Shown: in pieces, positions 1 through 58,939 of the stretch
How the letters are laid out: each line of letters begins with the position of its first letter
Numbering within the stretch: position 1 is the first letter of the stretch
Origin: Actinomycetes bacterium
GTDB lineage: Bacteria; Actinomycetota; Acidimicrobiia; Acidimicrobiales; JANYDT01
Assembly: GCA_031368095.1 (NCBI GenBank)
Contig: JANLQX010000514.1
Coordinates: 1-58,939 of the forward strand
Direction of reading: 5' to 3'
Length of the DNA stretch: 58,939 nucleotides
Translations under genes and position numbers: made by a program
The notes under the pieces: model-generated
What the model was told of the DNA's origin: nothing
Seen by the model: only the letters and a program-made list of their open reading frames with translations
Databases searched by the model: none

Positions 1-141
1 AATATTCGGCGACTCAAAGGGCGCTTGGAAGCCCTTTCCAAAACTAAGACCCAAGAGGAAACGGAAACGATCGGCGAAGCCGCCACCGTGAACGATTGCC
101 CGGCAGAAAACAGGATCCGCTTGACGTTCCCGGGCAAGCCC
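1..141. repeat. Terminal direct repeat copy 1 (identical to 58799-58939)
   Basis: nt 1-141 (AATATTCGGCGACTCAAAGG...CGGGCAAGCCC) occur again, base for base, at 58799-58939. Confidence 0.95.
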
Positions 142-7967: not shown

Positions 7968-8020
7968 CATATTTGGAGTGTGTATGCGCGATTGCGCTAC
8001 TAAAATCAGATCGTTTGAGT

Positions 8021-9244
8021 ATGAAGCAAGGTAAGCTGCCAGCTTTTCAGTTTTATCCCGGCGACTGGAGAAAAGATCCTGGCGTGCAATCTCTCTCTTT
8101 CCATGACCGTGGGGTCTGGTTTGAAATTATCTGCCTCATGCACGAATCAGAATTTAGGGGAAAACTAATTTTAAATGGCAAGCCTATGCCACAAGACGCT
8201 CTTGCCCGCCTGCTCGGTTTGGATAACCAAATTCTAACCAAAACAATCGACAACCTGTTAAACTATGGCGTAGCATCCCTATGTGATGAGACCGCCGCCC
8301 TTATCTGCCGTAGAATGTTGCGCGATGAAGAGGTCCGTATTATACAGAAAAATTTCGGCAAGCAGGGAGGAAATCCGGCGTTGTGCGAAAATTACAATAT
8401 GCCTGGTTTTGTTTATCTCATTCAGAGATCAGGAGACGGCAAAACGAAAATAGGAATTAGTGAAAACCCAACTCGGAGGCTTTACAGGCTTCGGTCAACC
8501 CATAAGGGTCAATCTCTGGAAATGCTAGGCTCGTTCCATGTTCAGGATATGGGGTATACGGAATCATGCCTACACAAAAAATATGCCTCAGTCGCTGATG
8601 GTGAATGGTTTTCAATAGGAAATAGCGAAATTGAAGAAATTAAGCAATATTTGATAGAATTACCCCATAAGGGTCAATCCAAGGATAATGAAACCCCTTC
8701 ATCTTCATCTTCATCTTCGGATCAAGATAAAGATAAGATCACCCACCCCGCGCGCGCGCATGTGCGCGTTGATGGATTCGAACCGGTGAGACCTGTTGAA
8801 TCTCCGCCTCCGACAACTCAGTTTTGCGCCGATCGTGCCTTGAAGGTTTTGAACCTCTATCCGTCTGTTGCCAAAAAAGACGGTAGGCCGGTTAGCAAAT
8901 CTATGCACGCTCAAAACCTCCTGGCGGCCCGTATAGCCAAGAGTCCGGATTACCCATGGGAAGAGCATGCCCAACTCATGGAGTTGAACCACACGCCCCC
9001 TGACGCCCATAAATGGGCGGATACGTTGCCGGATCAAATTGCCTTGAATGGACTCAGGAAAAGCAAAATCGAAATCAACAAAGGAGCCGCGAATGGAAGC
9101 CATCAAGCAGGCGCTAAACGCTTTGAATCTGAAATCCAAAGAAACGCGCGTCGAGCAAAGGAAATTTTCGGACCTCGATCGAATGCGGATAATACGCGGG
9201 ATGATAGCGGGGTTTTTCATAGCCACGGGGCGGGGGATTCCTGA
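8021..9244 (+). CDS. DUF1376 (YdaU-like) - T5orf172/GIY-YIG-like fusion protein (replication-associated)
   Basis: N-terminus FQFYPGDWRKDPGVQSLSFHDRGVWFEIICLMHES matches the DUF1376 pattern. The middle region GFVYLIQRSGDGKTKIGISENPTRRLYRL...GEWFSI matches the T5orf172/MUG113 pattern. A poly-Ser/Asp linker (SSSSSSSDQDKDK) follows. ATG 8021 is preferred over TTG 7973. Confidence 0.7.
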   Translation: MKQGKLPAFQFYPGDWRKDPGVQSLSFHDRGVWFEIICLMHESEFRGKLILNGKPMPQDALARLLGLDNQILTKTIDNLLNYGVASLCDETAALICRRMLRDEEVRIIQKNFGKQGGNPALCENYNMPGFVYLIQRSGDGKTKIGISENPTRRLYRLRSTHKGQSLEMLGSFHVQDMGYTESCLHKKYASVADGEWFSIGNSEIEEIKQYLIELPHKGQSKDNETPSSSSSSSDQDKDKITHPARAHVRVDGFEPVRPVESPPPTTQFCADRALKVLNLYPSVAKKDGRPVSKSMHAQNLLAARIAKSPDYPWEEHAQLMELNHTPPDAHKWADTLPDQIALNGLRKSKIEINKGAANGSHQAGAKRFESEIQRNARRAKEIFGPRSNADNTRDDSGVFHSHGAGDS

Positions 9245-9593
9245 TGCAGATTACCTGGAGCCAGCGGTGGAGATGGCTATGATTGATTGGGCGAGAATTC
9301 CTGCTGGCGATCTTCCCGAAGTTTGTGCAAGAGCCAGGCTTCTTGCCACTGGTAAAAACGGAAACTGGCCAGCCACTACAACGGAAGTGATGCAAGCATG
9401 GCGAAGCATTTCCTCCGAGTACCATCGAACAGCTTACCAGAGGATTCAAAAGGAGCGCGAGGCGCTTATTGAGTCCGGTACCGCACTGGCGGAGCCTACC
9501 ATCACAGAAATATCCGATCAAGGGCGAGAAGATTTTTTCGATGAATTGTACGCAAGCGCAGGCCTGCGGCGCCATAAGGTTACACCAAACTAA
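9093..9593 (+). CDS. Hypothetical protein (replication-module partner)
   Basis: ATG 9093 follows an AAAGGAG RBS. It overlaps the 3' end of the upstream gene by 152 nt in another frame. The start is uncertain. Confidence 0.5.
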   Translation: MEAIKQALNALNLKSKETRVEQRKFSDLDRMRIIRGMIAGFFIATGRGIPDADYLEPAVEMAMIDWARIPAGDLPEVCARARLLATGKNGNWPATTTEVMQAWRSISSEYHRTAYQRIQKEREALIESGTALAEPTITEISDQGREDFFDELYASAGLRRHKVTPN

Positions 9594-9642: not shown

Positions 9643-10287
9643 ATGAGCAGTACAGGCCGTGGATCTATCCGAGTCGAAAATGATTTTTACCCAACACCGG
9701 TCCAAACCATTCAATCCATTTTTGACAGGATCCATTGGGGCAAGGTCGAAACATTTTTAGAGCCATGCCGAGGTGACGGAGTGATTCTGAACATGGTTCC
9801 CGATCCAATCGTAAAACATTCTTGCGAGATAATGGACGGGCAGGATTATTTTCTTACGGCAACCCCTTCGGTCGATTTGACTCTAACGAACCCGCCATTC
9901 TCGTCCGCGCTGGAGTTTCTTTCAAAAGCGATCGACGGCTCGAAAACTGTGGTGTTTCTGTTGCGAACCAACTTTCTCGGATCTGCAAAACGAATGCCCT
10001 ATCTTTCCGCTCATAGGCCAACACACCTGTACCAGCTTTCGGAAAGGCCGTCATTTGTGGATGTTTGCAAAGGCGGGCTTGTTCGAACTACCGGAGCGGC
10101 AGGAAAAATACTTAACTCCGAAAAGAAGAAAGGATGTGGTTGGGCTTTTCAGAAAAATGCAGGAGTTAAAGAGTGCCCAAACTGCGGGGGAAATGTTAGC
10201 GCCGGCACCGACTCGATTGAATACGCTTGGTTTTGTTGGGATAACGGACAGATAATGAAAGACATGCCTGGAATTTATTTTCTATGA
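9643..10287 (+). CDS. N6-adenine DNA methyltransferase with C-terminal Zn-ribbon
   Basis: DFYPTP, motif I-like LEPCRGDGVIL and motif IV NPPF. The C-terminal region carries CGW...CPNCGG. Confidence 0.75.
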   Translation: MSSTGRGSIRVENDFYPTPVQTIQSIFDRIHWGKVETFLEPCRGDGVILNMVPDPIVKHSCEIMDGQDYFLTATPSVDLTLTNPPFSSALEFLSKAIDGSKTVVFLLRTNFLGSAKRMPYLSAHRPTHLYQLSERPSFVDVCKGGLVRTTGAAGKILNSEKKKGCGWAFQKNAGVKECPNCGGNVSAGTDSIEYAWFCWDNGQIMKDMPGIYFL

Positions 10288-10321
10288 AAAATCCGGTATT
10301 ATATCAAATCAGCATTTCGGA

Positions 10322-10385
10322 ATTCGTCACCAATTATAATGGTCACGAATATTCTTTAGGAGTGTTCGGTAAAATTTTAGGTAAA
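10322..10385 (+). promoter_or_regulatory. Candidate promoter/operator upstream of the DUF5131 operon
   Basis: Imperfect palindrome ATTCGTCACCA (10322-10332) / TGGTCACGAAT (10340-10350) brackets a perfect TATAAT (10335-10340). It is followed by TTCGGTAAA (10365-10373) and TTAGGTAAA (10377-10385). Confidence 0.45.
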
Positions 10386-10438
10386 GCCTTTTTTAAAATC
10401 GTGTTTCGCGTAACTTATTCTTTTTGATTGGAGCGAGA

Positions 10439-11263
10439 ATGAGCAAGAGCGTTGTTGAGTGGGCAGATGCCGTATGGGACCCGTTAGTGCTTTGGCCATC
10501 CAAACTCGAAGAACCAATTTCATTAACAGGCGCATTAAAAATATTTACCGGGCTTCATTCGGACCTATGGGATGATTCCGTTCCTTTTGAATACCTGGAT
10601 AGCATTATGGATGTGGTAAGGCGTTCGGAAAATCACACGTTTCAATTTCTTTCCAGGCGAACCGATCGAATGGCAGAATACTTCCTTACTCGCCCGCCAG
10701 TTGGGTGGCCGTTTCCAAATGCATGGCTTGGAGTGTACGCAGAAAGTCAGCCAGCCTTCAATGCCAGAATGGAAATGTTTAAACCGATTCCGGCAGCTTT
10801 GAAATGGCTTTCGTACCAGCCAGCATTAGGGCCTATTAATCTGAGAAAGGCGCTAAATATCATAGGCGCAGAAGGATCTGCATTGTGGATGCCAGGAAAT
10901 GGCGCGCGTGATTTGGACTGGGTAGTCTGTGGCGGAGAGTTTGGGAAAAATGCAAGAGCCTCAAACCCCGAGTGGTTCCGGCTTGTTCGCGACCAATGTT
11001 GCGCCGTCGGTGTCCCATTCTTTTTCAGCAATTGGGGAGAGTGGGCCCCTGATCACCATGGCTCGTCGATATCTCTCACGCGCATGGCTGTTTTTCATCC
11101 GGAGGATACTGGGGAACCACCTATTTACCTTCGGGATATGAATCCATCAAATCGGTCTGCATGGGCTGTAAATGCTTATGGAGACACTCCAATGTACATG
11201 GTCGGAAAGAAGCATTCCGGACGATTGCTGGACGGATTAGAATGTCAGGAGTTTCCAGAATGA
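10439..11263 (+). CDS. Gp37/Gp68-family (DUF5131) protein, variant lacking the N-terminal Cys cluster
   Basis: EWADAVWDP, HTFQFLSRRTDRM and LDWVVCGGEFGKNARASNPEWFRLVRDQCCAVGVPFFFSNWGEW match the family pattern. The expected GC..GC..CYA segment after WDP is absent. Confidence 0.65.
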   Translation: MSKSVVEWADAVWDPLVLWPSKLEEPISLTGALKIFTGLHSDLWDDSVPFEYLDSIMDVVRRSENHTFQFLSRRTDRMAEYFLTRPPVGWPFPNAWLGVYAESQPAFNARMEMFKPIPAALKWLSYQPALGPINLRKALNIIGAEGSALWMPGNGARDLDWVVCGGEFGKNARASNPEWFRLVRDQCCAVGVPFFFSNWGEWAPDHHGSSISLTRMAVFHPEDTGEPPIYLRDMNPSNRSAWAVNAYGDTPMYMVGKKHSGRLLDGLECQEFPE

Positions 11264-11736
11264 ATATTATGAAGAGCGGTTCGAAGGTGGTATGCCAAAA
11301 GTGTTTTGCAGTTCAGTCGCTACCTGTTGCAAATATTGAAGCTGGTCGGTACGCGGATTACGCCTGTGTGGAATGTTCCGAAAAGATGAATATTCTCAGC
11401 CTAGAAATCGTAGAAAGGCGAGTTTTGGAGCTGAAATGTTGGCCCGACAATTTCAGGCAGATCAAGCGAGGCGTTAAAACTTGCGATATACGAGTCAATG
11501 ACCGAGGCTACAAAGTAGGGGACACTCTTCACCTGCGGGAATGGATCCCCAGTGCCGATTACGATTTAGATGGGAGTGGAGAATACACTGGCCATTTTGT
11601 TTATGTCCAAGTCAAGCATGTGGTATGCGGTCAGCTTGGGATTCCACGGGGCCTCGCCGTCCTGTCGATTTCAAGCCCGCAGTTGTGGAGAAATAAAATA
11701 CTTGGTAAAAAAACTAAAAAGGTGTTGACCGTTTAA
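11260..11736 (+). CDS. Zn-ribbon + DUF3850 (ASCH/PUA-like) protein
   Basis: ATGA overlap with the upstream gene. Contains CQKC...CVEC, then LELKCWPDNFRQIKRGVKTCDIRVNDRGYKVGDTLHLREW, which is typical of DUF3850. Confidence 0.65.
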   Translation: MNIMKSGSKVVCQKCFAVQSLPVANIEAGRYADYACVECSEKMNILSLEIVERRVLELKCWPDNFRQIKRGVKTCDIRVNDRGYKVGDTLHLREWIPSADYDLDGSGEYTGHFVYVQVKHVVCGQLGIPRGLAVLSISSPQLWRNKILGKKTKKVLTV

Positions 11737-11791: not shown

Positions 11792-12319
11792 ATGTCACTT
11801 AACGGAGCGAAACTTTGCCCTACTTGCGGATCCATCGGATGGAAGGAAAAAGGCTCCCGCATGTACAGATGCAAAAGCGACCACCGCTTTGGGAATAAGT
11901 TTGGTGCCAAGCGCGCCAATGTTGGGCTTGGTACGGATCCGGAATTAACCAGGCGGTTCGGACACTTCGATTCGCGTCTTGAGTTGGATTATTTTAGAGA
12001 GGTGCTTGGCTGGTTGGAAAAAGCGGGAGAGATCACAGAGTTGAGGCACCACACAATTATTCACCTTATCCCAGGTTTCAATTTTGAAACAGACTGGGAT
12101 TACAAAACCAAGGACGGCGTATATCGCATTGCAGATACCAAAGGCGTGGCCGATGCTCGTTTTAAGTGCATTGTTGCCATGTGGCCGTTCTTTGGTCATG
12201 GGCCCTTGGACATCGTGAAGCGGTCAGGAACAAAGTGGCTTATTCGGACGGTCCCAGTAGGCAAGTGGGGAATTAAACCAGGGATCACGGCTCCCTGGGA
12301 ATTCACAAAGGTGGCATGA
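11792..12319 (+). CDS. Zn-ribbon + DUF1064-like nuclease (candidate junction resolvase)
   Basis: CPTCGS...RCKSDH, then FDSRLELDYFREVLGWLEKAGEITELRHH...YRIADTKGV...FKCIVAMW, which resembles the DUF1064 / PD-(D/E)XK-like pattern. Confidence 0.5.
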   Translation: MSLNGAKLCPTCGSIGWKEKGSRMYRCKSDHRFGNKFGAKRANVGLGTDPELTRRFGHFDSRLELDYFREVLGWLEKAGEITELRHHTIIHLIPGFNFETDWDYKTKDGVYRIADTKGVADARFKCIVAMWPFFGHGPLDIVKRSGTKWLIRTVPVGKWGIKPGITAPWEFTKVA

Positions 12320-12531
12320 TGGAAGCAACATCCTCAACAAATGAATTACTCACAGCTACGGACCTTATGGACTGGCTACAGGTTGGGCCAAAATGGGTGG
12401 AGAAAAACACTCAGGCCCGCCGCATTCCCGGTCAATTCAAAGCGGGCCGTGCATGGCGCTATGACCGGGCCGCTATTGAAAAACAACGCTTAGCCACTGG
12501 CCAAATTCTCTTGCCGAAAAAGTCTAAATAA
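12316..12531 (+). CDS. xis: Excisionase / HTH_17-like DNA-binding protein
   Basis: LLTATDLMDWLQVGPKWVEKNTQARRIPGQFKAGRAWRYDRAAIE. It lies immediately upstream of and is coupled (TAATG) to the integrase. Confidence 0.65.
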   Translation: MMEATSSTNELLTATDLMDWLQVGPKWVEKNTQARRIPGQFKAGRAWRYDRAAIEKQRLATGQILLPKKSK

Positions 12532-13673
12532 TGCAACTTTATAATGGCCAGCCCATGGCGCCCATATCCGGAGGAAACTTCGCTATGGGCATTACCAAAC
12601 TAGCGCCAAACCATTTTTTCATCAAAGCACGGCATAAGACCAATGGGGAAGACCGTCGGGAACAGCTTCATTTTACTGGCACAAAAGCCCAGGCGGAAGA
12701 AAAGTACCTCGAAATCCTTAGACGCCTCCGCCGCGAAAAAAAGCCCGCTCAGGCCTTTGGCGACCTTTTAGCCGCATACTGTGAAAGCCGGGGCGGCGTT
12801 ATACCCCGGTCCCAGCGATCGATTTTCGAAGATCTTGCCAGGGATTTGGGCGGTGTAGATTTGGCGGCCATTGGCGACAAACTGCAAGAGTATGCCGGCA
12901 TACTTAGGCGGTTGCCGTCTAAAACCACGGGCCGCAAATTATCGGCTGCAAGCTTAAACCGGAGACGGGCCATGGTGGCAGCCTCATTAAACTTGGCTGT
13001 TGAGTTAAAAATTATCCCACACTCACCGCTTAACGCCGCCGTATGGCCAAAAGAGAATGAAGTCCCTCGGGATCGATTTTTGTCCCACGTCGAGTCTACG
13101 GCCCTGCTGAACGCTATTTCCATGTCGGCCCCGCACCTTTTGCCTGTGACGCAATTTGCCCTTCAAGTGCCGTGCCGCAAGGCAGAGCTTGTATCCATGA
13201 CCCGCGCCGATTTGGATCTCTTCCACAATGCGATCAGAGTCCACAACGGCACAACCAAGAACGAGGCTGGCGCATGGAAACCGATTCCTCCGAATATGGT
13301 GCCCTATTTCCGATCCATTCCTGCGGACTGTCCGTACCTTTTCTATCGCATGGAGCGCGGCCAATACGCACCCCTTGGGGATTTTAAACGATCTTGGGCG
13401 ACAGCCAAGCGTATTGCCGGAATTCAGAACCTGCGTTTTCACGATACTCGGCACATATCCGCTACTGCATTGGTGGACGCCGGCACCCCAGAAAGGGCCG
13501 TCATGGACATAGCCGGATGGCGCACAAATATGCTTTCGACTTATTATTCCAGTTCCAGCAAAAAGGCTTTAAGCCTTGTTAAATTTGGTAACGGAAGTGG
13601 CAACACAGGGGCAACTTTCGAGGGGGTTGGGCTAAAAACTGGTAAGAATGGGACAGAAAGGACGGTTTTGTAA
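12531..13673 (+). CDS. int: Tyrosine integrase
   Basis: C-terminal catalytic pattern LRFHDTRHISATALVDAGTPERAVMDIAGWRTNMLSTYY (H-x-x-R ... Y). It is followed directly by the attP tRNA fragment. Confidence 0.85.
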   Translation: MQLYNGQPMAPISGGNFAMGITKLAPNHFFIKARHKTNGEDRREQLHFTGTKAQAEEKYLEILRRLRREKKPAQAFGDLLAAYCESRGGVIPRSQRSIFEDLARDLGGVDLAAIGDKLQEYAGILRRLPSKTTGRKLSAASLNRRRAMVAASLNLAVELKIIPHSPLNAAVWPKENEVPRDRFLSHVESTALLNAISMSAPHLLPVTQFALQVPCRKAELVSMTRADLDLFHNAIRVHNGTTKNEAGAWKPIPPNMVPYFRSIPADCPYLFYRMERGQYAPLGDFKRSWATAKRIAGIQNLRFHDTRHISATALVDAGTPERAVMDIAGWRTNMLSTYYSSSSKKALSLVKFGNGSGNTGATFEGVGLKTGKNGTERTVL

Positions 13674-19065: not shown

Positions 19066-19392
19066 ATGAAGGCGGATAAAATGAGCGGCAACTCAAAGCG
19101 CGTACTTAGTATGACTTTGCATCGAAAATGGTTCGACGCTATTGCGAAGGGGAAGAAGAAGAAGGAATACCGAGACTCCAAGGATTACTGGCTTAAAAGA
19201 TTTTTCGATCCCGAAGGTCGATTGATCAAGTACGACGAAGTGCATTTCAAGAACGGGTACTCGCCGGAAGCCCCATTCATGCGTGTGGAATGGTTAGGCA
19301 TGAAGAAGATAACGGTTGAAGGATCGGAGGTCTGCGCGATTCAACTAGGAAACGTGCTGGAGATCCTTAATTGGAAGGGGCCGGCAGCATGA
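19066..19392 (+). CDS. ASCH domain protein
   Basis: MTLHRKWFDAIAKGKKKKEYRDSKDYWLKRF...YDEVHFKNGYSPEAPFMRVEW. It is preceded by ATAAAGGTG (19043-19051). Confidence 0.6.
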   Translation: MKADKMSGNSKRVLSMTLHRKWFDAIAKGKKKKEYRDSKDYWLKRFFDPEGRLIKYDEVHFKNGYSPEAPFMRVEWLGMKKITVEGSEVCAIQLGNVLEILNWKGPAA

Positions 19393-20252
19393 ACCGCCCA
19401 ATCTGGACCACCGAAAAGCGTAAAGTCAAAGACCTTATTCCCTGGCCGAGAAACCCCAGGCGCATCACCGAAACAAAGATGATGCACCTCAAGGAAAGCC
19501 TGAATAAGTTCGGGTACGCCGATCCAGTAATCGCAAATGTGGACGAACAGCTTATTGCGGGTCACATGCGCCTCAAGGCGATGGCGATTCTTAAAATGGT
19601 AACACCGGATACCGATGTCGATGTTCGCATTCCTAATCGGCGCCTTACCGAAGACGAAGCCAAAGAACTGGCTGTTCGTCACAATGGCAAATTTGGCGAG
19701 TGGAATATGGAAATGCTATCCGCAGATTTTACCTATGGAGAACTGCTTAATTTCGGCTTTGAAAAATTCGAACTAGGTTTCGACATGGGTAACGAGCCGC
19801 AAAAAGAATCTCATGGGGAAGACCAGGATCCCGAAGACGACGAAGCCGACGGCAAAGAGCCTCAGGACAGCCAGGCGGGCGACAGCGCAGTCAATAACGC
19901 AGAAATTCCATCCGGGAATCGCCAGGGCGGGCCGAGCGTGGAACCGGAGGCTTTGGACCTGAAGGACATCGAAGAGAATAACCCAAAACTACAGGCGTTT
20001 TTAGATCGCCGTCGCGCAGCAAAAGAGCGCGGCAAGGATAAGGGAGAATTGAATTTCTGGCTCTGCATAGTTTTTCAATCCTACGAACAGAAAATGGAGT
20101 TTTCCACCAAACTAGGGCTGGAAACAAAGTACGGCATGTATGCCAATGGAGAGGAGATTGCGAAAAAAATTGCTCTATCCATTACCGAAACGACTCAAAA
20201 ACCTGTCCAGGTGCCGCTAGACAAAGTACTATCAAAGATGGTTCAACAATGA
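19389..20252 (+). CDS. ParB-like nuclease domain protein (IbrB-like)
   Basis: ATGA overlap with the ASCH gene. LIPWPRNPRRITETKMMHLKESLNKFGYADPVIANVDEQLIAGHMRLKA; acidic low-complexity middle region. Confidence 0.7.
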   Translation: MNRPIWTTEKRKVKDLIPWPRNPRRITETKMMHLKESLNKFGYADPVIANVDEQLIAGHMRLKAMAILKMVTPDTDVDVRIPNRRLTEDEAKELAVRHNGKFGEWNMEMLSADFTYGELLNFGFEKFELGFDMGNEPQKESHGEDQDPEDDEADGKEPQDSQAGDSAVNNAEIPSGNRQGGPSVEPEALDLKDIEENNPKLQAFLDRRRAAKERGKDKGELNFWLCIVFQSYEQKMEFSTKLGLETKYGMYANGEEIAKKIALSITETTQKPVQVPLDKVLSKMVQQ

Positions 20253-20268
20253 GTGGAGGTGATACTGA

Positions 20269-21156
20269 ATGGCAAAGAAGAAAGCAGCTAAAAAACTCAA
20301 GCCCGTCCCGCCCAAAAAGCGTGGCGCCAAGCCCCTAAAAAAGGCGGAGGCAAGAAAGGCAAAGGCGGAGGCAAGGGAGGCGGCGGAGGCGGTTAAGCCT
20401 GCGGTGATTCTCGAAACCGACAAGTCTCGTTCGCTCTGCGAAACCATATCGCTTGAGTCGGACGGGACTTGTTTTCTTGGGTTCAGTCGCGGAAAAGACA
20501 GCATTGCTGCATGGCTGTACCTGCGCCGGTTCTTTAAACGTGTAATCCCATTTCACGTAGCGACGGTACCGGGTCTGGGTTTCGTGGACCGAAGCCTAGC
20601 CTATTATGAGGCGTTTTTTCAAACTCCAGTGCTGCGCCTCATGGACGGGGATGTGATCAAGGATTTAAACCGCATGATCTATCAGCCGGAATCGGACGAA
20701 GCCGAGATCGACGATTTAGAGCTTTGGACCTATAACAAACACAATATTTTGGACCTTTTGCGCAAGGTTTACAACATTCCAAATGCCTGGGGAGCGTTCG
20801 GCATCAATATGACGGACAGCCTGGACAGGCGAATATATGTAGCGCAATGCCAAGGCCGCCATGATACGTGGAAGACGTTCTATCCATGCTGGGATTGGAC
20901 GAAGGAACAGATCCTTGCTTCTATAAATGCCGTGGGTCTGGCTCTGCCGGGCGACTATCTGCTCGCTTCGCGCACAGTTGCAGGAACACCGTCTTATCGG
21001 CACATCAAACGCATGCGAGATATGTACCCGGAAGACTTCGAAAAGATAACCCACATGTTCCCGTACGTATACGCCGAATTGGCCAGGCAAGAATTTCGAG
21101 AGGCTATGCCTAGATTCCAGAACGCTGTCAAGACCAAGAAGATCAAGGCCGCCTAA
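20269..21156 (+). CDS. PAPS-reductase-family (PP-loop ATPase, IbrA/DndC-like) protein
   Basis: Lys/Ala-rich N-terminus, then the PP-loop-like segment CFLGFSRGKDSIAAWLYL. Confidence 0.65.
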   Translation: MAKKKAAKKLKPVPPKKRGAKPLKKAEARKAKAEAREAAEAVKPAVILETDKSRSLCETISLESDGTCFLGFSRGKDSIAAWLYLRRFFKRVIPFHVATVPGLGFVDRSLAYYEAFFQTPVLRLMDGDVIKDLNRMIYQPESDEAEIDDLELWTYNKHNILDLLRKVYNIPNAWGAFGINMTDSLDRRIYVAQCQGRHDTWKTFYPCWDWTKEQILASINAVGLALPGDYLLASRTVAGTPSYRHIKRMRDMYPEDFEKITHMFPYVYAELARQEFREAMPRFQNAVKTKKIKAA

Positions 21157-58142: not shown

Positions 58143-58939
58143 TGGAACAGATGCAATTTATAAACGACATCCCCAGGAACTTGGCAATAGCAGCCCATGC
58201 GGGAACCAGCTTTGTGCCGGAAAGGCGCGGGGACGCAGAGCGAGAGTCCTACGCTTCCGAAATGGCGGCGGACTATGCAAGGCTGGCCAAGCACGCTGAC
58301 ACCCCAGAAAAGCAGGCGCAACTAGAAGAAGAGTTTGCTAGGTATCGAACGGGGTATGCGGCCAGAACCAGGCTATACCTTTCCGCAAGGTCTAGGTGCC
58401 TGTCAACAATGATAACTGGCCCTTCAAATTTCAATACTCGCAGGAACACCAAAGCCAACAATTCCGAGCGCAACAAACTGGATGAATTGGTTGGATTCAG
58501 AGAGCGGGCTTTAAAGGCGATTATAAAGAAAATGCACCCTGAGCTCAGGCCTATAATGGCTGGTGATGGCGATGCACTGGAGCGCCTGCAAGAAAAGCTG
58601 GATACGCTGGAATCCAACCAGGAAATGATGGTCGCAGTAAACGCCACTATACGCAAGTACGCCAAGGAAGGGGCGGAAGCCCAGGTGGCCGGATTGATTG
58701 ATCTGGGGGTTTCTAGGGTCAGAGCTGTCGCGCTTCTCGTCCCGGATTTTTGTAAGCGAATCGGCTTTCCATCCTACTCTCTGACCAACAACGGCGCAAA
58801 TATTCGGCGACTCAAAGGGCGCTTGGAAGCCCTTTCCAAAACTAAGACCCAAGAGGAAACGGAAACGATCGGCGAAGCCGCCACCGTGAACGATTGCCCG
58901 GCAGAAAACAGGATCCGCTTGACGTTCCCGGGCAAGCCC
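58142..58939 (+). CDS. DUF3560-like protein, N-terminal part (runs off the window end and continues at 1..279)
   Basis: ATG 58142 with no stop before 58939. The joined gene is 312 codons. Confidence 0.7.
   Translation, partial: MEQMQFINDIPRNLAIAAHAGTSFVPERRGDAERESYASEMAADYARLAKHADTPEKQAQLEEEFARYRTGYAARTRLYLSARSRCLSTMITGPSNFNTRRNTKANNSERNKLDELVGFRERALKAIIKKMHPELRPIMAGDGDALERLQEKLDTLESNQEMMVAVNATIRKYAKEGAEAQVAGLIDLGVSRVRAVALLVPDFCKRIGFPSYSLTNNGANIRRLKGRLEALSKTKTQEETETIGEAATVNDCPAENRIRLTFPGKP
58799..58939. repeat. Terminal direct repeat copy 2 (identical to 1-141)
   Basis: Exact duplicate of the window start. Consistent with circular assembly overlap or terminal redundancy. Confidence 0.95.

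Follow-up and report, generated by a model that had tools for sequence, protein, structure and literature searches.

A DUF5131 homologue without its cysteine motif, lying between methyltransferase and DUF3850 genes in the early region of a temperate phage

The sequence analysed here, a contig of 58,939 nucleotides (JANLQX010000514.1, assembly GCA_031368095.1, assigned to an Actinomycetes bacterium of the order Acidimicrobiales; hereafter the window, meaning the whole of this stretch), is a circularly assembled, complete temperate phage genome of about 58.8 kb. The circular assembly is indicated by the exact match of its first and last 141 bases, a direct terminal repeat (window 1–141 = 58799–58939), and its completeness and temperate character by this repeat taken together with the structural genes (large terminase, portal, major head (capsid) protein and tape-measure protein), an excisionase-like helix-turn-helix (HTH) protein and an integrase. 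The contig belongs to a metagenome-assembled genome bin of 515 contigs that is 92.8% complete, and no nucleotide-level relative of the phage genome was found among 50,697 phage records (INPHARED). Our subject is the segment from 9643 to 11736, which sits in an early, lysogeny-proximal operon running from replication and recombination genes to the excisionase and integrase genes (xis-int). Three co-directional genes follow one another there: a predicted adenine methyltransferase (MTase), a homologue of the DUF5131 family (also called Gp37/Gp68) and a small protein that joins a zinc ribbon to a DUF3850 domain. An initial annotation, made from the sequence itself, had regarded the trio as a candidate module for DNA modification or for the reading of modified bases, and had remarked that the DUF5131 homologue lacks the cysteine-rich segment of its family. 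The features of the segment are as follows.

9643–10287, forward strand: orphan adenine-N6-type MTase of 214 amino acids, Vibrio phage K139 orf8 / phrog_799 family (phrog_799, E = 4.7e-37)
10288–10438, no strand: AT-rich spacer of 151 bp (from composition)
10439–11263, forward strand: DUF5131 (Gp37/Gp68) homologue of 274 amino acids, without CX6CX2C (PF07505, E = 4.1e-50)
10484–10498, forward strand: junction of the in-frame loss, codons P15-L16-V17-L18-W19 (from alignment)
11260–11736, forward strand: Zn-ribbon + DUF3850 (ASCH/PUA-like) protein of 158 amino acids (PF12961, E = 2.4e-17)

The assignment of the middle gene to DUF5131, first proposed from its motifs, is borne out by a PF07505 match of 171 bits (gathering threshold 28.9; E = 4.1e-50). 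This match spans only profile positions 51–243 of 243; that to PHROG 2045 begins at profile position 62, and those to the PADLOC profiles PDC-M30B and PDC-M41B begin at position 54. In the alignment, WDP-LVLW-PSKLEEP stands in place of the WNP-xxGCxxxSxGCxNCYA...(helix)...LxxPLxW of the relatives, an in-frame loss of about 30 residues with respect to even the shortest canonical members, and all three cysteines are gone. The CX6CX2C motif is complete in 209/209 canonical sequences and is represented by gaps in the window protein. The earlier remark that the segment after WNP has been replaced is thus upheld by the profile alignment, and the canonical form assumed there was the right one (100% of the 209). 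The gene most plausibly starts at the ATG at 10439, preceded at 7 nt by a GGAG, with a TTG at 10424 offered as an alternative by open reading frame (ORF) calling. A search of every upstream frame, the spacer included, found no remnant of the cysteine motif, which rules out a segment displaced by a frameshift.

In radical S-adenosylmethionine (SAM) enzymes, the [4Fe-4S] cluster to which SAM binds and by which it is cleaved reductively has its ligands in the CX..CX2C loop, and the GGE motif is SAM-binding. Judged by this chemistry, a DUF5131 protein deprived of its cysteine loop should not be able to cleave SAM reductively. The GGE motif itself is kept (G165-G166-E167-x-G169), with the S168 that follows it changed to F, and the other scaffold motifs are also retained: the EW..W.P hairpin, D42, R74, P128, GGE.G, RDQC, GVPFFF, WG.W and GRLLDG. 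A published classification gives DUF5131 the rank of a subgroup within the radical SAM superfamily (Megacluster-5-2), with spore photoproduct lyase next to it in Megacluster-5-3 (PMC9477430). Despite this listing, the biochemical role of the Gp37/Gp68 proteins is still not established, just as the initial annotation had said; a literature search found no publication on the function of DUF5131, PF07505 or Gp37-Gp68, and a sequence search of the PDB found no solved relative of DUF5131. An AlphaFold2 (AF2) model of the window protein, built with 112 sequences, is confident (predicted local distance difference test, pLDDT, 88.6; predicted template-modelling score, pTM, 0.88). Its best structural match in the PDB is spore photoproduct lyase (4rh0, 4fhc), a DNA-repair radical SAM enzyme of the neighbouring megacluster, followed by assorted TIM barrels. 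All of these matches are weak (E ~0.03; for the lyase, TM ~0.3 and 9% identity), and the lyase, unlike the window protein, has its cluster intact.

How unusual is such a loss within the family? Within a collection of 5.8 billion proteins, the window protein remains a singleton, and a HMMER search through all 1.84 billion representatives of a second one returned 24,331 family matches (E<0.001), none of them closer than 46% identity; no close relative of the gene was found in 40 related genomes or in the INPHARED DNA. The nearest relative, P0121 (46% identity; Logan SRR29498874 contig, 189–1082), is canonical. It had at one point been a candidate for a further cluster-less form and was rejected as such, its start having been mis-called at an internal ATG; an in-frame TTG 168 nt upstream restores the cysteine motif. 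Many of the DUF5131 database entries that appear to be Cys-less are start miscalls of this kind or truncations at contig ends.

A screen for loss of the cysteine motif, which drew on the best 150 of the ~24,000 PF07505 matches among the representatives, found internal loss in 7 of 216 sequences that have an intact N-terminus: the window protein, P0107, P0124, P0169, P0216, P0260 and P0238, the last of which lost the motif by Cys-to-Tyr and Cys-to-Ser changes. The boundaries differ in each of the seven, and the five other than the window protein and P0107 keep all the other conserved residues; these five would be either very recent losses or sequencing errors. On a maximum-likelihood tree, the cluster-less label requires seven independent changes, no fewer than when the labels are shuffled. 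A single ancient loss common to the window protein and P0107 was considered and rejected on the strength of these seven changes, with the reservation that the placement of long branches on the tree is unsure. Among 73 DUF5131 genes of viral contigs, 70 carry the motif, one is an expanded variant and two are cut by contig ends, which leaves 0/71 complete genes without it. On this sampling, loss of the cysteine cluster is rare and sporadic, and no lineage resulting from it has been seen. P0107 itself is encoded at 8001–8810 of a contig of GCA_041890195.1, a phage-like contig with Pol III alpha and ribonucleotide reductase genes.

The cysteines are not the only conserved residues that have been lost. 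Outside the deletion, 23 columns vary in no more than two of the 209 canonical sequences, and six of these columns are changed in the window protein (I6V, F44W, K73R, T72S, E127Q and K197S). Two of these changes, F44W and T72S, are shared with the canonical relative P0121; I6V, K73R, E127Q and K197S are not. K73 has no exception at all in the 209 sequences, E127 and K197 have one each, and two more changes, S168F and Q198N, affect columns with 94% conservation. Independently, the unrelated cluster-less P0107 has also replaced E127, S168, K197 and Q198, and the sharing of changed conserved columns between the two proteins has a hypergeometric P of 0.039. Located by the secondary-structure elements of the AF2 model alone, the replaced residues directly follow strands 67–72, 121–126, 161–164 and 194–196; these are the C-terminal ends of the strands, the place of the active site in barrel enzymes. 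Such a pattern of substitution fits a catalytic face released from selection while the fold is still under selection, and the loss of the cysteine cluster combined with that of K73, E127 and K197 points to inactivation rather than to a special cluster-free subclass. The convergent loss of E127 and K197 in two cluster-less variants makes these two residues candidates for the active site of canonical DUF5131 proteins.

Set beside canonical DUF5131 (PF07505; COG4422; the B component of the PADLOC candidates PDC-M30 and PDC-M41), the window copy shows clear homology, shared motifs and a location in a phage early region, but it has no CX6CX2C, has K73, E127, S168, K197 and Q198 replaced, and stands at 46% identity from its nearest relative. 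It also differs from the known pair of DUF5131 with TcmP (TIGR04474; PDC-M30/M41), for the window contains no TcmP-type partner: its MTase is not of that type, and no TIGR04474 match occurs anywhere in the 92.8%-complete genome bin.

The MTase has no Pfam, NCBIfam or PADLOC match and is recognised through phrog_799 'DNA methyltransferase' (4.7e-37). The motifs by which it had first been read as an N6-adenine MTase, DFYPTP and NPPF, are indeed present, the latter within TNPPF (catalytic motif IV), as is EPCRGDG (SAM-binding motif I), and the fold that carries them is of the Rossmann type. Homologues occur in 436 phage records, including Vibrio phage K139 (orf8) and large enterobacterial phages, and many are annotated, by similarity, as DNA N6-adenine MTases; a large protein collection adds 57 homologous proteins with up to 74% identity. 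In an alignment of 60 sequences, Y16, E40-P41 (of EPxxGxG) and N83-P84-P85 are invariant. The zinc-ribbon cysteines (C142, C165, C178 and C181) belong to a segment of about 45 residues (~140–185) that some members of the family carry as an insert, RPSF being directly joined to G.DS.EYAWFCWD in the members that do not have it. This insert probably serves in target recognition and is a candidate for a swappable element of that kind. The window protein resembles the K139 orf8-type phage MTases (phrog_799; annotated as T1 Dam-like) over its full length, with 32% identity over residues 1–202, and shares with them FYPTP, EPxxGxG, NPPF, the C-terminal EYAWFCWD and the condition of an orphan gene in a phage early region; it differs from them in its ~45-residue zinc-ribbon insert, restricted as this is to part of the family. 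The AF2 model of the MTase has a pLDDT of 91.5, and its best Foldseek matches (probability 1.00) are the adenine MTases TRMT61A, Dim1/KsgA, Erm, PacII and HsdM. The family annotation and the phage habitat make DNA a likelier substrate than RNA.

The third gene is coupled to the DUF5131 gene in the manner described earlier, the overlap of its ATG (11260) with the DUF5131 stop as ATGA being visible in the sequence, with a GGAG upstream. Its product matches PF12961 with 63 bits (cut-off 22.9; E = 2.4e-17) and phrog_986 at 2.7e-22. The ASCH/PUA-like affinity previously ascribed to it is supported by PF12961 and by a weak match to the ASCH-domain protein 3iuw in the PDB (E = 2.9e-4), beside which there is a weak PF04266 match (0.033). 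The cysteines of its zinc ribbon are C12, C15, C36 and C39. The phage homologues of this protein are the P2 ORF91-like 'RNA-binding' proteins, encoded just before replication gene A in P2-like phages. In a tblastn comparison with Salmonella phage PHB48 (2423–2920), the window gene is collinear across a TraR/DksA-type (P2 ORF82-like) zinc-finger gene and into the DUF3850 gene, the zinc ribbon of the window protein corresponding to 11260–11430; the protein looks like a fusion of two genes, ORF82-like and ORF91-like, that are adjacent elsewhere. The DUF3850 domain and the collinear order of zinc finger and DUF3850 are thus common to the window and the P2-like phages, but in the latter they are two separate genes that precede replication gene A, and in the window they make up one polypeptide of 158 amino acids encoded after DUF5131. 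In two phages of Firmicutes, Listeria phage LP-101 and Clostridium phage phiCD211, the DUF3850 gene lies two to three genes from genes of RNA-repair type (RNA ligase; the RNA 2'-phosphotransferase KptA), and these neighbours hint at an RNA-related role for DUF3850.

A cooperation of the three proteins in DNA modification or in the reading of modified bases, with an epigenetic or anti-restriction purpose, is suggested by the co-directional arrangement of their genes in one apparent operon and by the ATGA overlap of two of them. It agrees also with comparative work on ASCH, a domain that has been proposed as a discriminator of N6-methyladenine (m6A) and whose superfamily is recurrently found fused to N6A-MTases or in operons with them (Iyer, Zhang and Aravind, Bioessays 2016, PMC4738411); the statement of the initial annotation that PUA-like domains have been proposed as readers of modified bases is accordingly to be found in print, as a prediction for ASCH. 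The window shares with these associations the presence of an ASCH-superfamily domain and an adenine MTase in one operon. It departs from them in that the two genes are neither adjacent nor fused and in that the pairing is not conserved among the relatives examined. Moreover, the 151-bp spacer splits the MTase gene from the other two. In an otherwise tightly packed operon, this spacer stands out by its GC content of 33% (49% in the genome) and could mark a boundary between modules or a site of regulation within the operon; it has no significant RNA fold (z-score −0.49) and no Rfam match, and a promoter and terminator scan of the region gave results no better than shuffled sequences and no convincing internal promoter or terminator.

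Seven further contigs carry the MTase at 51–74% identity, in other gene surroundings, and at 18 loci with MTase homologues (30–74% identity) the neighbours always differ (NinG, C5 methylase, RusA, small ORFs). DUF3850 was not detected at any of these 18 loci, and the only DUF5131 gene, at one of them, is five genes upstream, canonical and 35% identical. Seen from DUF5131, a count of two genes in either direction from each of the 73 viral family members gives 275 proteins, about 10 of which are by Pfam DNA methylases, of four families, the rest of the Pfam matches being replication and recombination genes; DUF3850 and ASCH are absent from the 25 commonest families listed on either side of the 73 genes. 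Relatives of the window MTase, of the DUF3850 protein and of the 175-codon ORF that follows them (ORF175) gave no match at 80 viral DUF5131 loci. A related-locus search with the DUF3850 protein found nothing. There is an adjacent MTase in one of eight phage DUF3850 contexts, that of Vibrio phage ZF14_PE001, where the DUF3850 gene overlaps a homologue of the window MTase by 4 nt, and none in the other seven; in Gordonia phage Zirinka, genes for an ASCH protein, an MTase and DUF5131 lie within 3.5 kb. These two phages, together with the published survey, favour a loose affinity between MTases and PUA-like proteins, which is plausible and already known, but the trio does not recur, the MTase is not of the TcmP type with which DUF5131 is elsewhere paired, and there is no support for a system of three genes. 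Across the genomes compared, only this phage has them side by side, which is not the mark of a conserved system, and we regard their cooperation as a module, the central proposal of the initial annotation, as improbable. We advise against carrying the apparent module forward as a system; unless the cluster-less protein proves to be kept and to function, the region is an ordinary set of phage early accessory genes.

On a modest balance of probability, we read the segment as three independently mobile early accessory genes in which the DUF5131 copy would be catalytically dead and probably still expressed. The orphan adenine-N6 MTase would most likely mark the phage DNA against restriction. The DUF5131 gene would have a radical SAM enzyme as its ancestor, from which the CX6CX2C loop, the seat of the [4Fe-4S] cluster, was deleted in frame, with residues of the catalytic face replaced thereafter (K73R, E127Q, S168F, K197S and Q198N). 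Its scaffold motifs and open frame are preserved, as are the ribosome-binding site and the coupling to the gene that follows. The protein most likely continues to be produced, as a pseudoenzyme without catalytic activity that perhaps binds nucleic acid or a partner protein. The Zn-ribbon-DUF3850 protein would be a small PUA-like nucleic-acid binder.

The main rival of this reading, possible in our view though doubtful, takes the DUF5131 gene for a recently inactivated and functionless remnant that is drifting to loss, while the MTase and the DUF3850 protein work independently. The family-wide pattern is what would be expected of dead ends, the cluster-less variants being all singletons with different deletion boundaries that never form a clade, and the window protein itself has substituted residues with 0–1 exceptions in the 209 canonical sequences, has no conserved partner gene and has the longest terminal branch of the tree (3.23 against a median of 1.02). 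Nonetheless, a frame of 274 codons has stayed open despite substantial divergence, the fold-defining motifs and the N-terminal EW..W.P hairpin are kept in a protein that AF2 models with confidence, the ribosome-binding site is good, and the stop codon overlaps the next start. The genome, furthermore, is compact and apparently complete, and useless DNA is normally purged fast from compact phage genomes. Some observations do weigh against the preferred reading of an inactivated and still expressed protein. The search for a close relative by which to date the deletion, or to gauge selection on the gene, found none nearer than 46% identity. The canonical P0121 is about as divergent (64/86 conserved columns, as against 63/86 for the window protein), so that the long terminal branch cannot be ascribed to the loss of the cluster alone; and the closest solved folds of the MTase include RNA as well as DNA adenine MTases, which tempers its assignment to the marking of DNA. 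The deletion might, lastly, be an assembly artefact or a minority variant in a population that really carries canonical DUF5131: the source of the contig is a metagenome-assembled genome in 515 pieces, the protein stands alone among 5.8 billion, and several of the other cluster-less entries, which keep every other conserved residue, could be errors. We hold this to be very improbable, as the loss is exactly in frame and as independent substitutions of near-invariant residues elsewhere in the gene are not expected from an assembly error.

If the cluster-less protein is kept for what it does, it may be as a pseudoenzyme that recognises the nucleic-acid substrate or the partner of its family without being able to act on it. 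It could then act as a decoy or dominant-negative protein against host systems of the DUF5131/TcmP type (PDC-M30/M41), or as a scaffold that, with the DUF3850 protein, reads the m6A mark of the MTase; we consider such a role a long shot. Should the protein indeed prove to be kept and to function, a virus would then provide a case of a pseudoenzyme of radical SAM descent. The family to which it belongs is very large (>24,000 representative clusters, E<0.001), entirely uncharacterised, and frequent both in phages and in cassettes that are linked to SOS or are candidates for defence.

Downstream of the segment, the operon continues to its end with three further genes.

11792–12319, forward strand: ORF175, 175 amino acids, with an N-terminal CxxC...C and a distant likeness to DUF1064 (tblastn)
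12316–12531, forward strand: excisionase-like HTH protein (HTH_17, phrog_1840)
12531–13673, forward strand: tyrosine integrase, end of the operon (PF00589, phrog_1)

ORF175 matches no family of Pfam, NCBIfam or PHROG at default thresholds. Its N-terminus is Zn-ribbon-like, and by tblastn it is 36% identical (E = 6e-9) to a PF06356 DUF1064 gene that, on another contig, is the gene immediately before an MTase homologue. In the window, the ORF next upstream of the MTase, at 9048–9593, overlaps the ORF at 7973–9244 by ~200 nt in a different frame; a 34%-identical homologue occupies the same position, immediately before an MTase homologue, on a 64-kb contig. Farther along the window, the interval 19371–21156 encodes a ParB-like protein, which also matches MTase-type profiles, followed by a protein that resembles 3'-phosphoadenosine 5'-phosphosulfate (PAPS) reductase. 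A PAPS-reductase-like gene also comes directly after DUF5131 in the Mycobacterium prophage prophi62-2.

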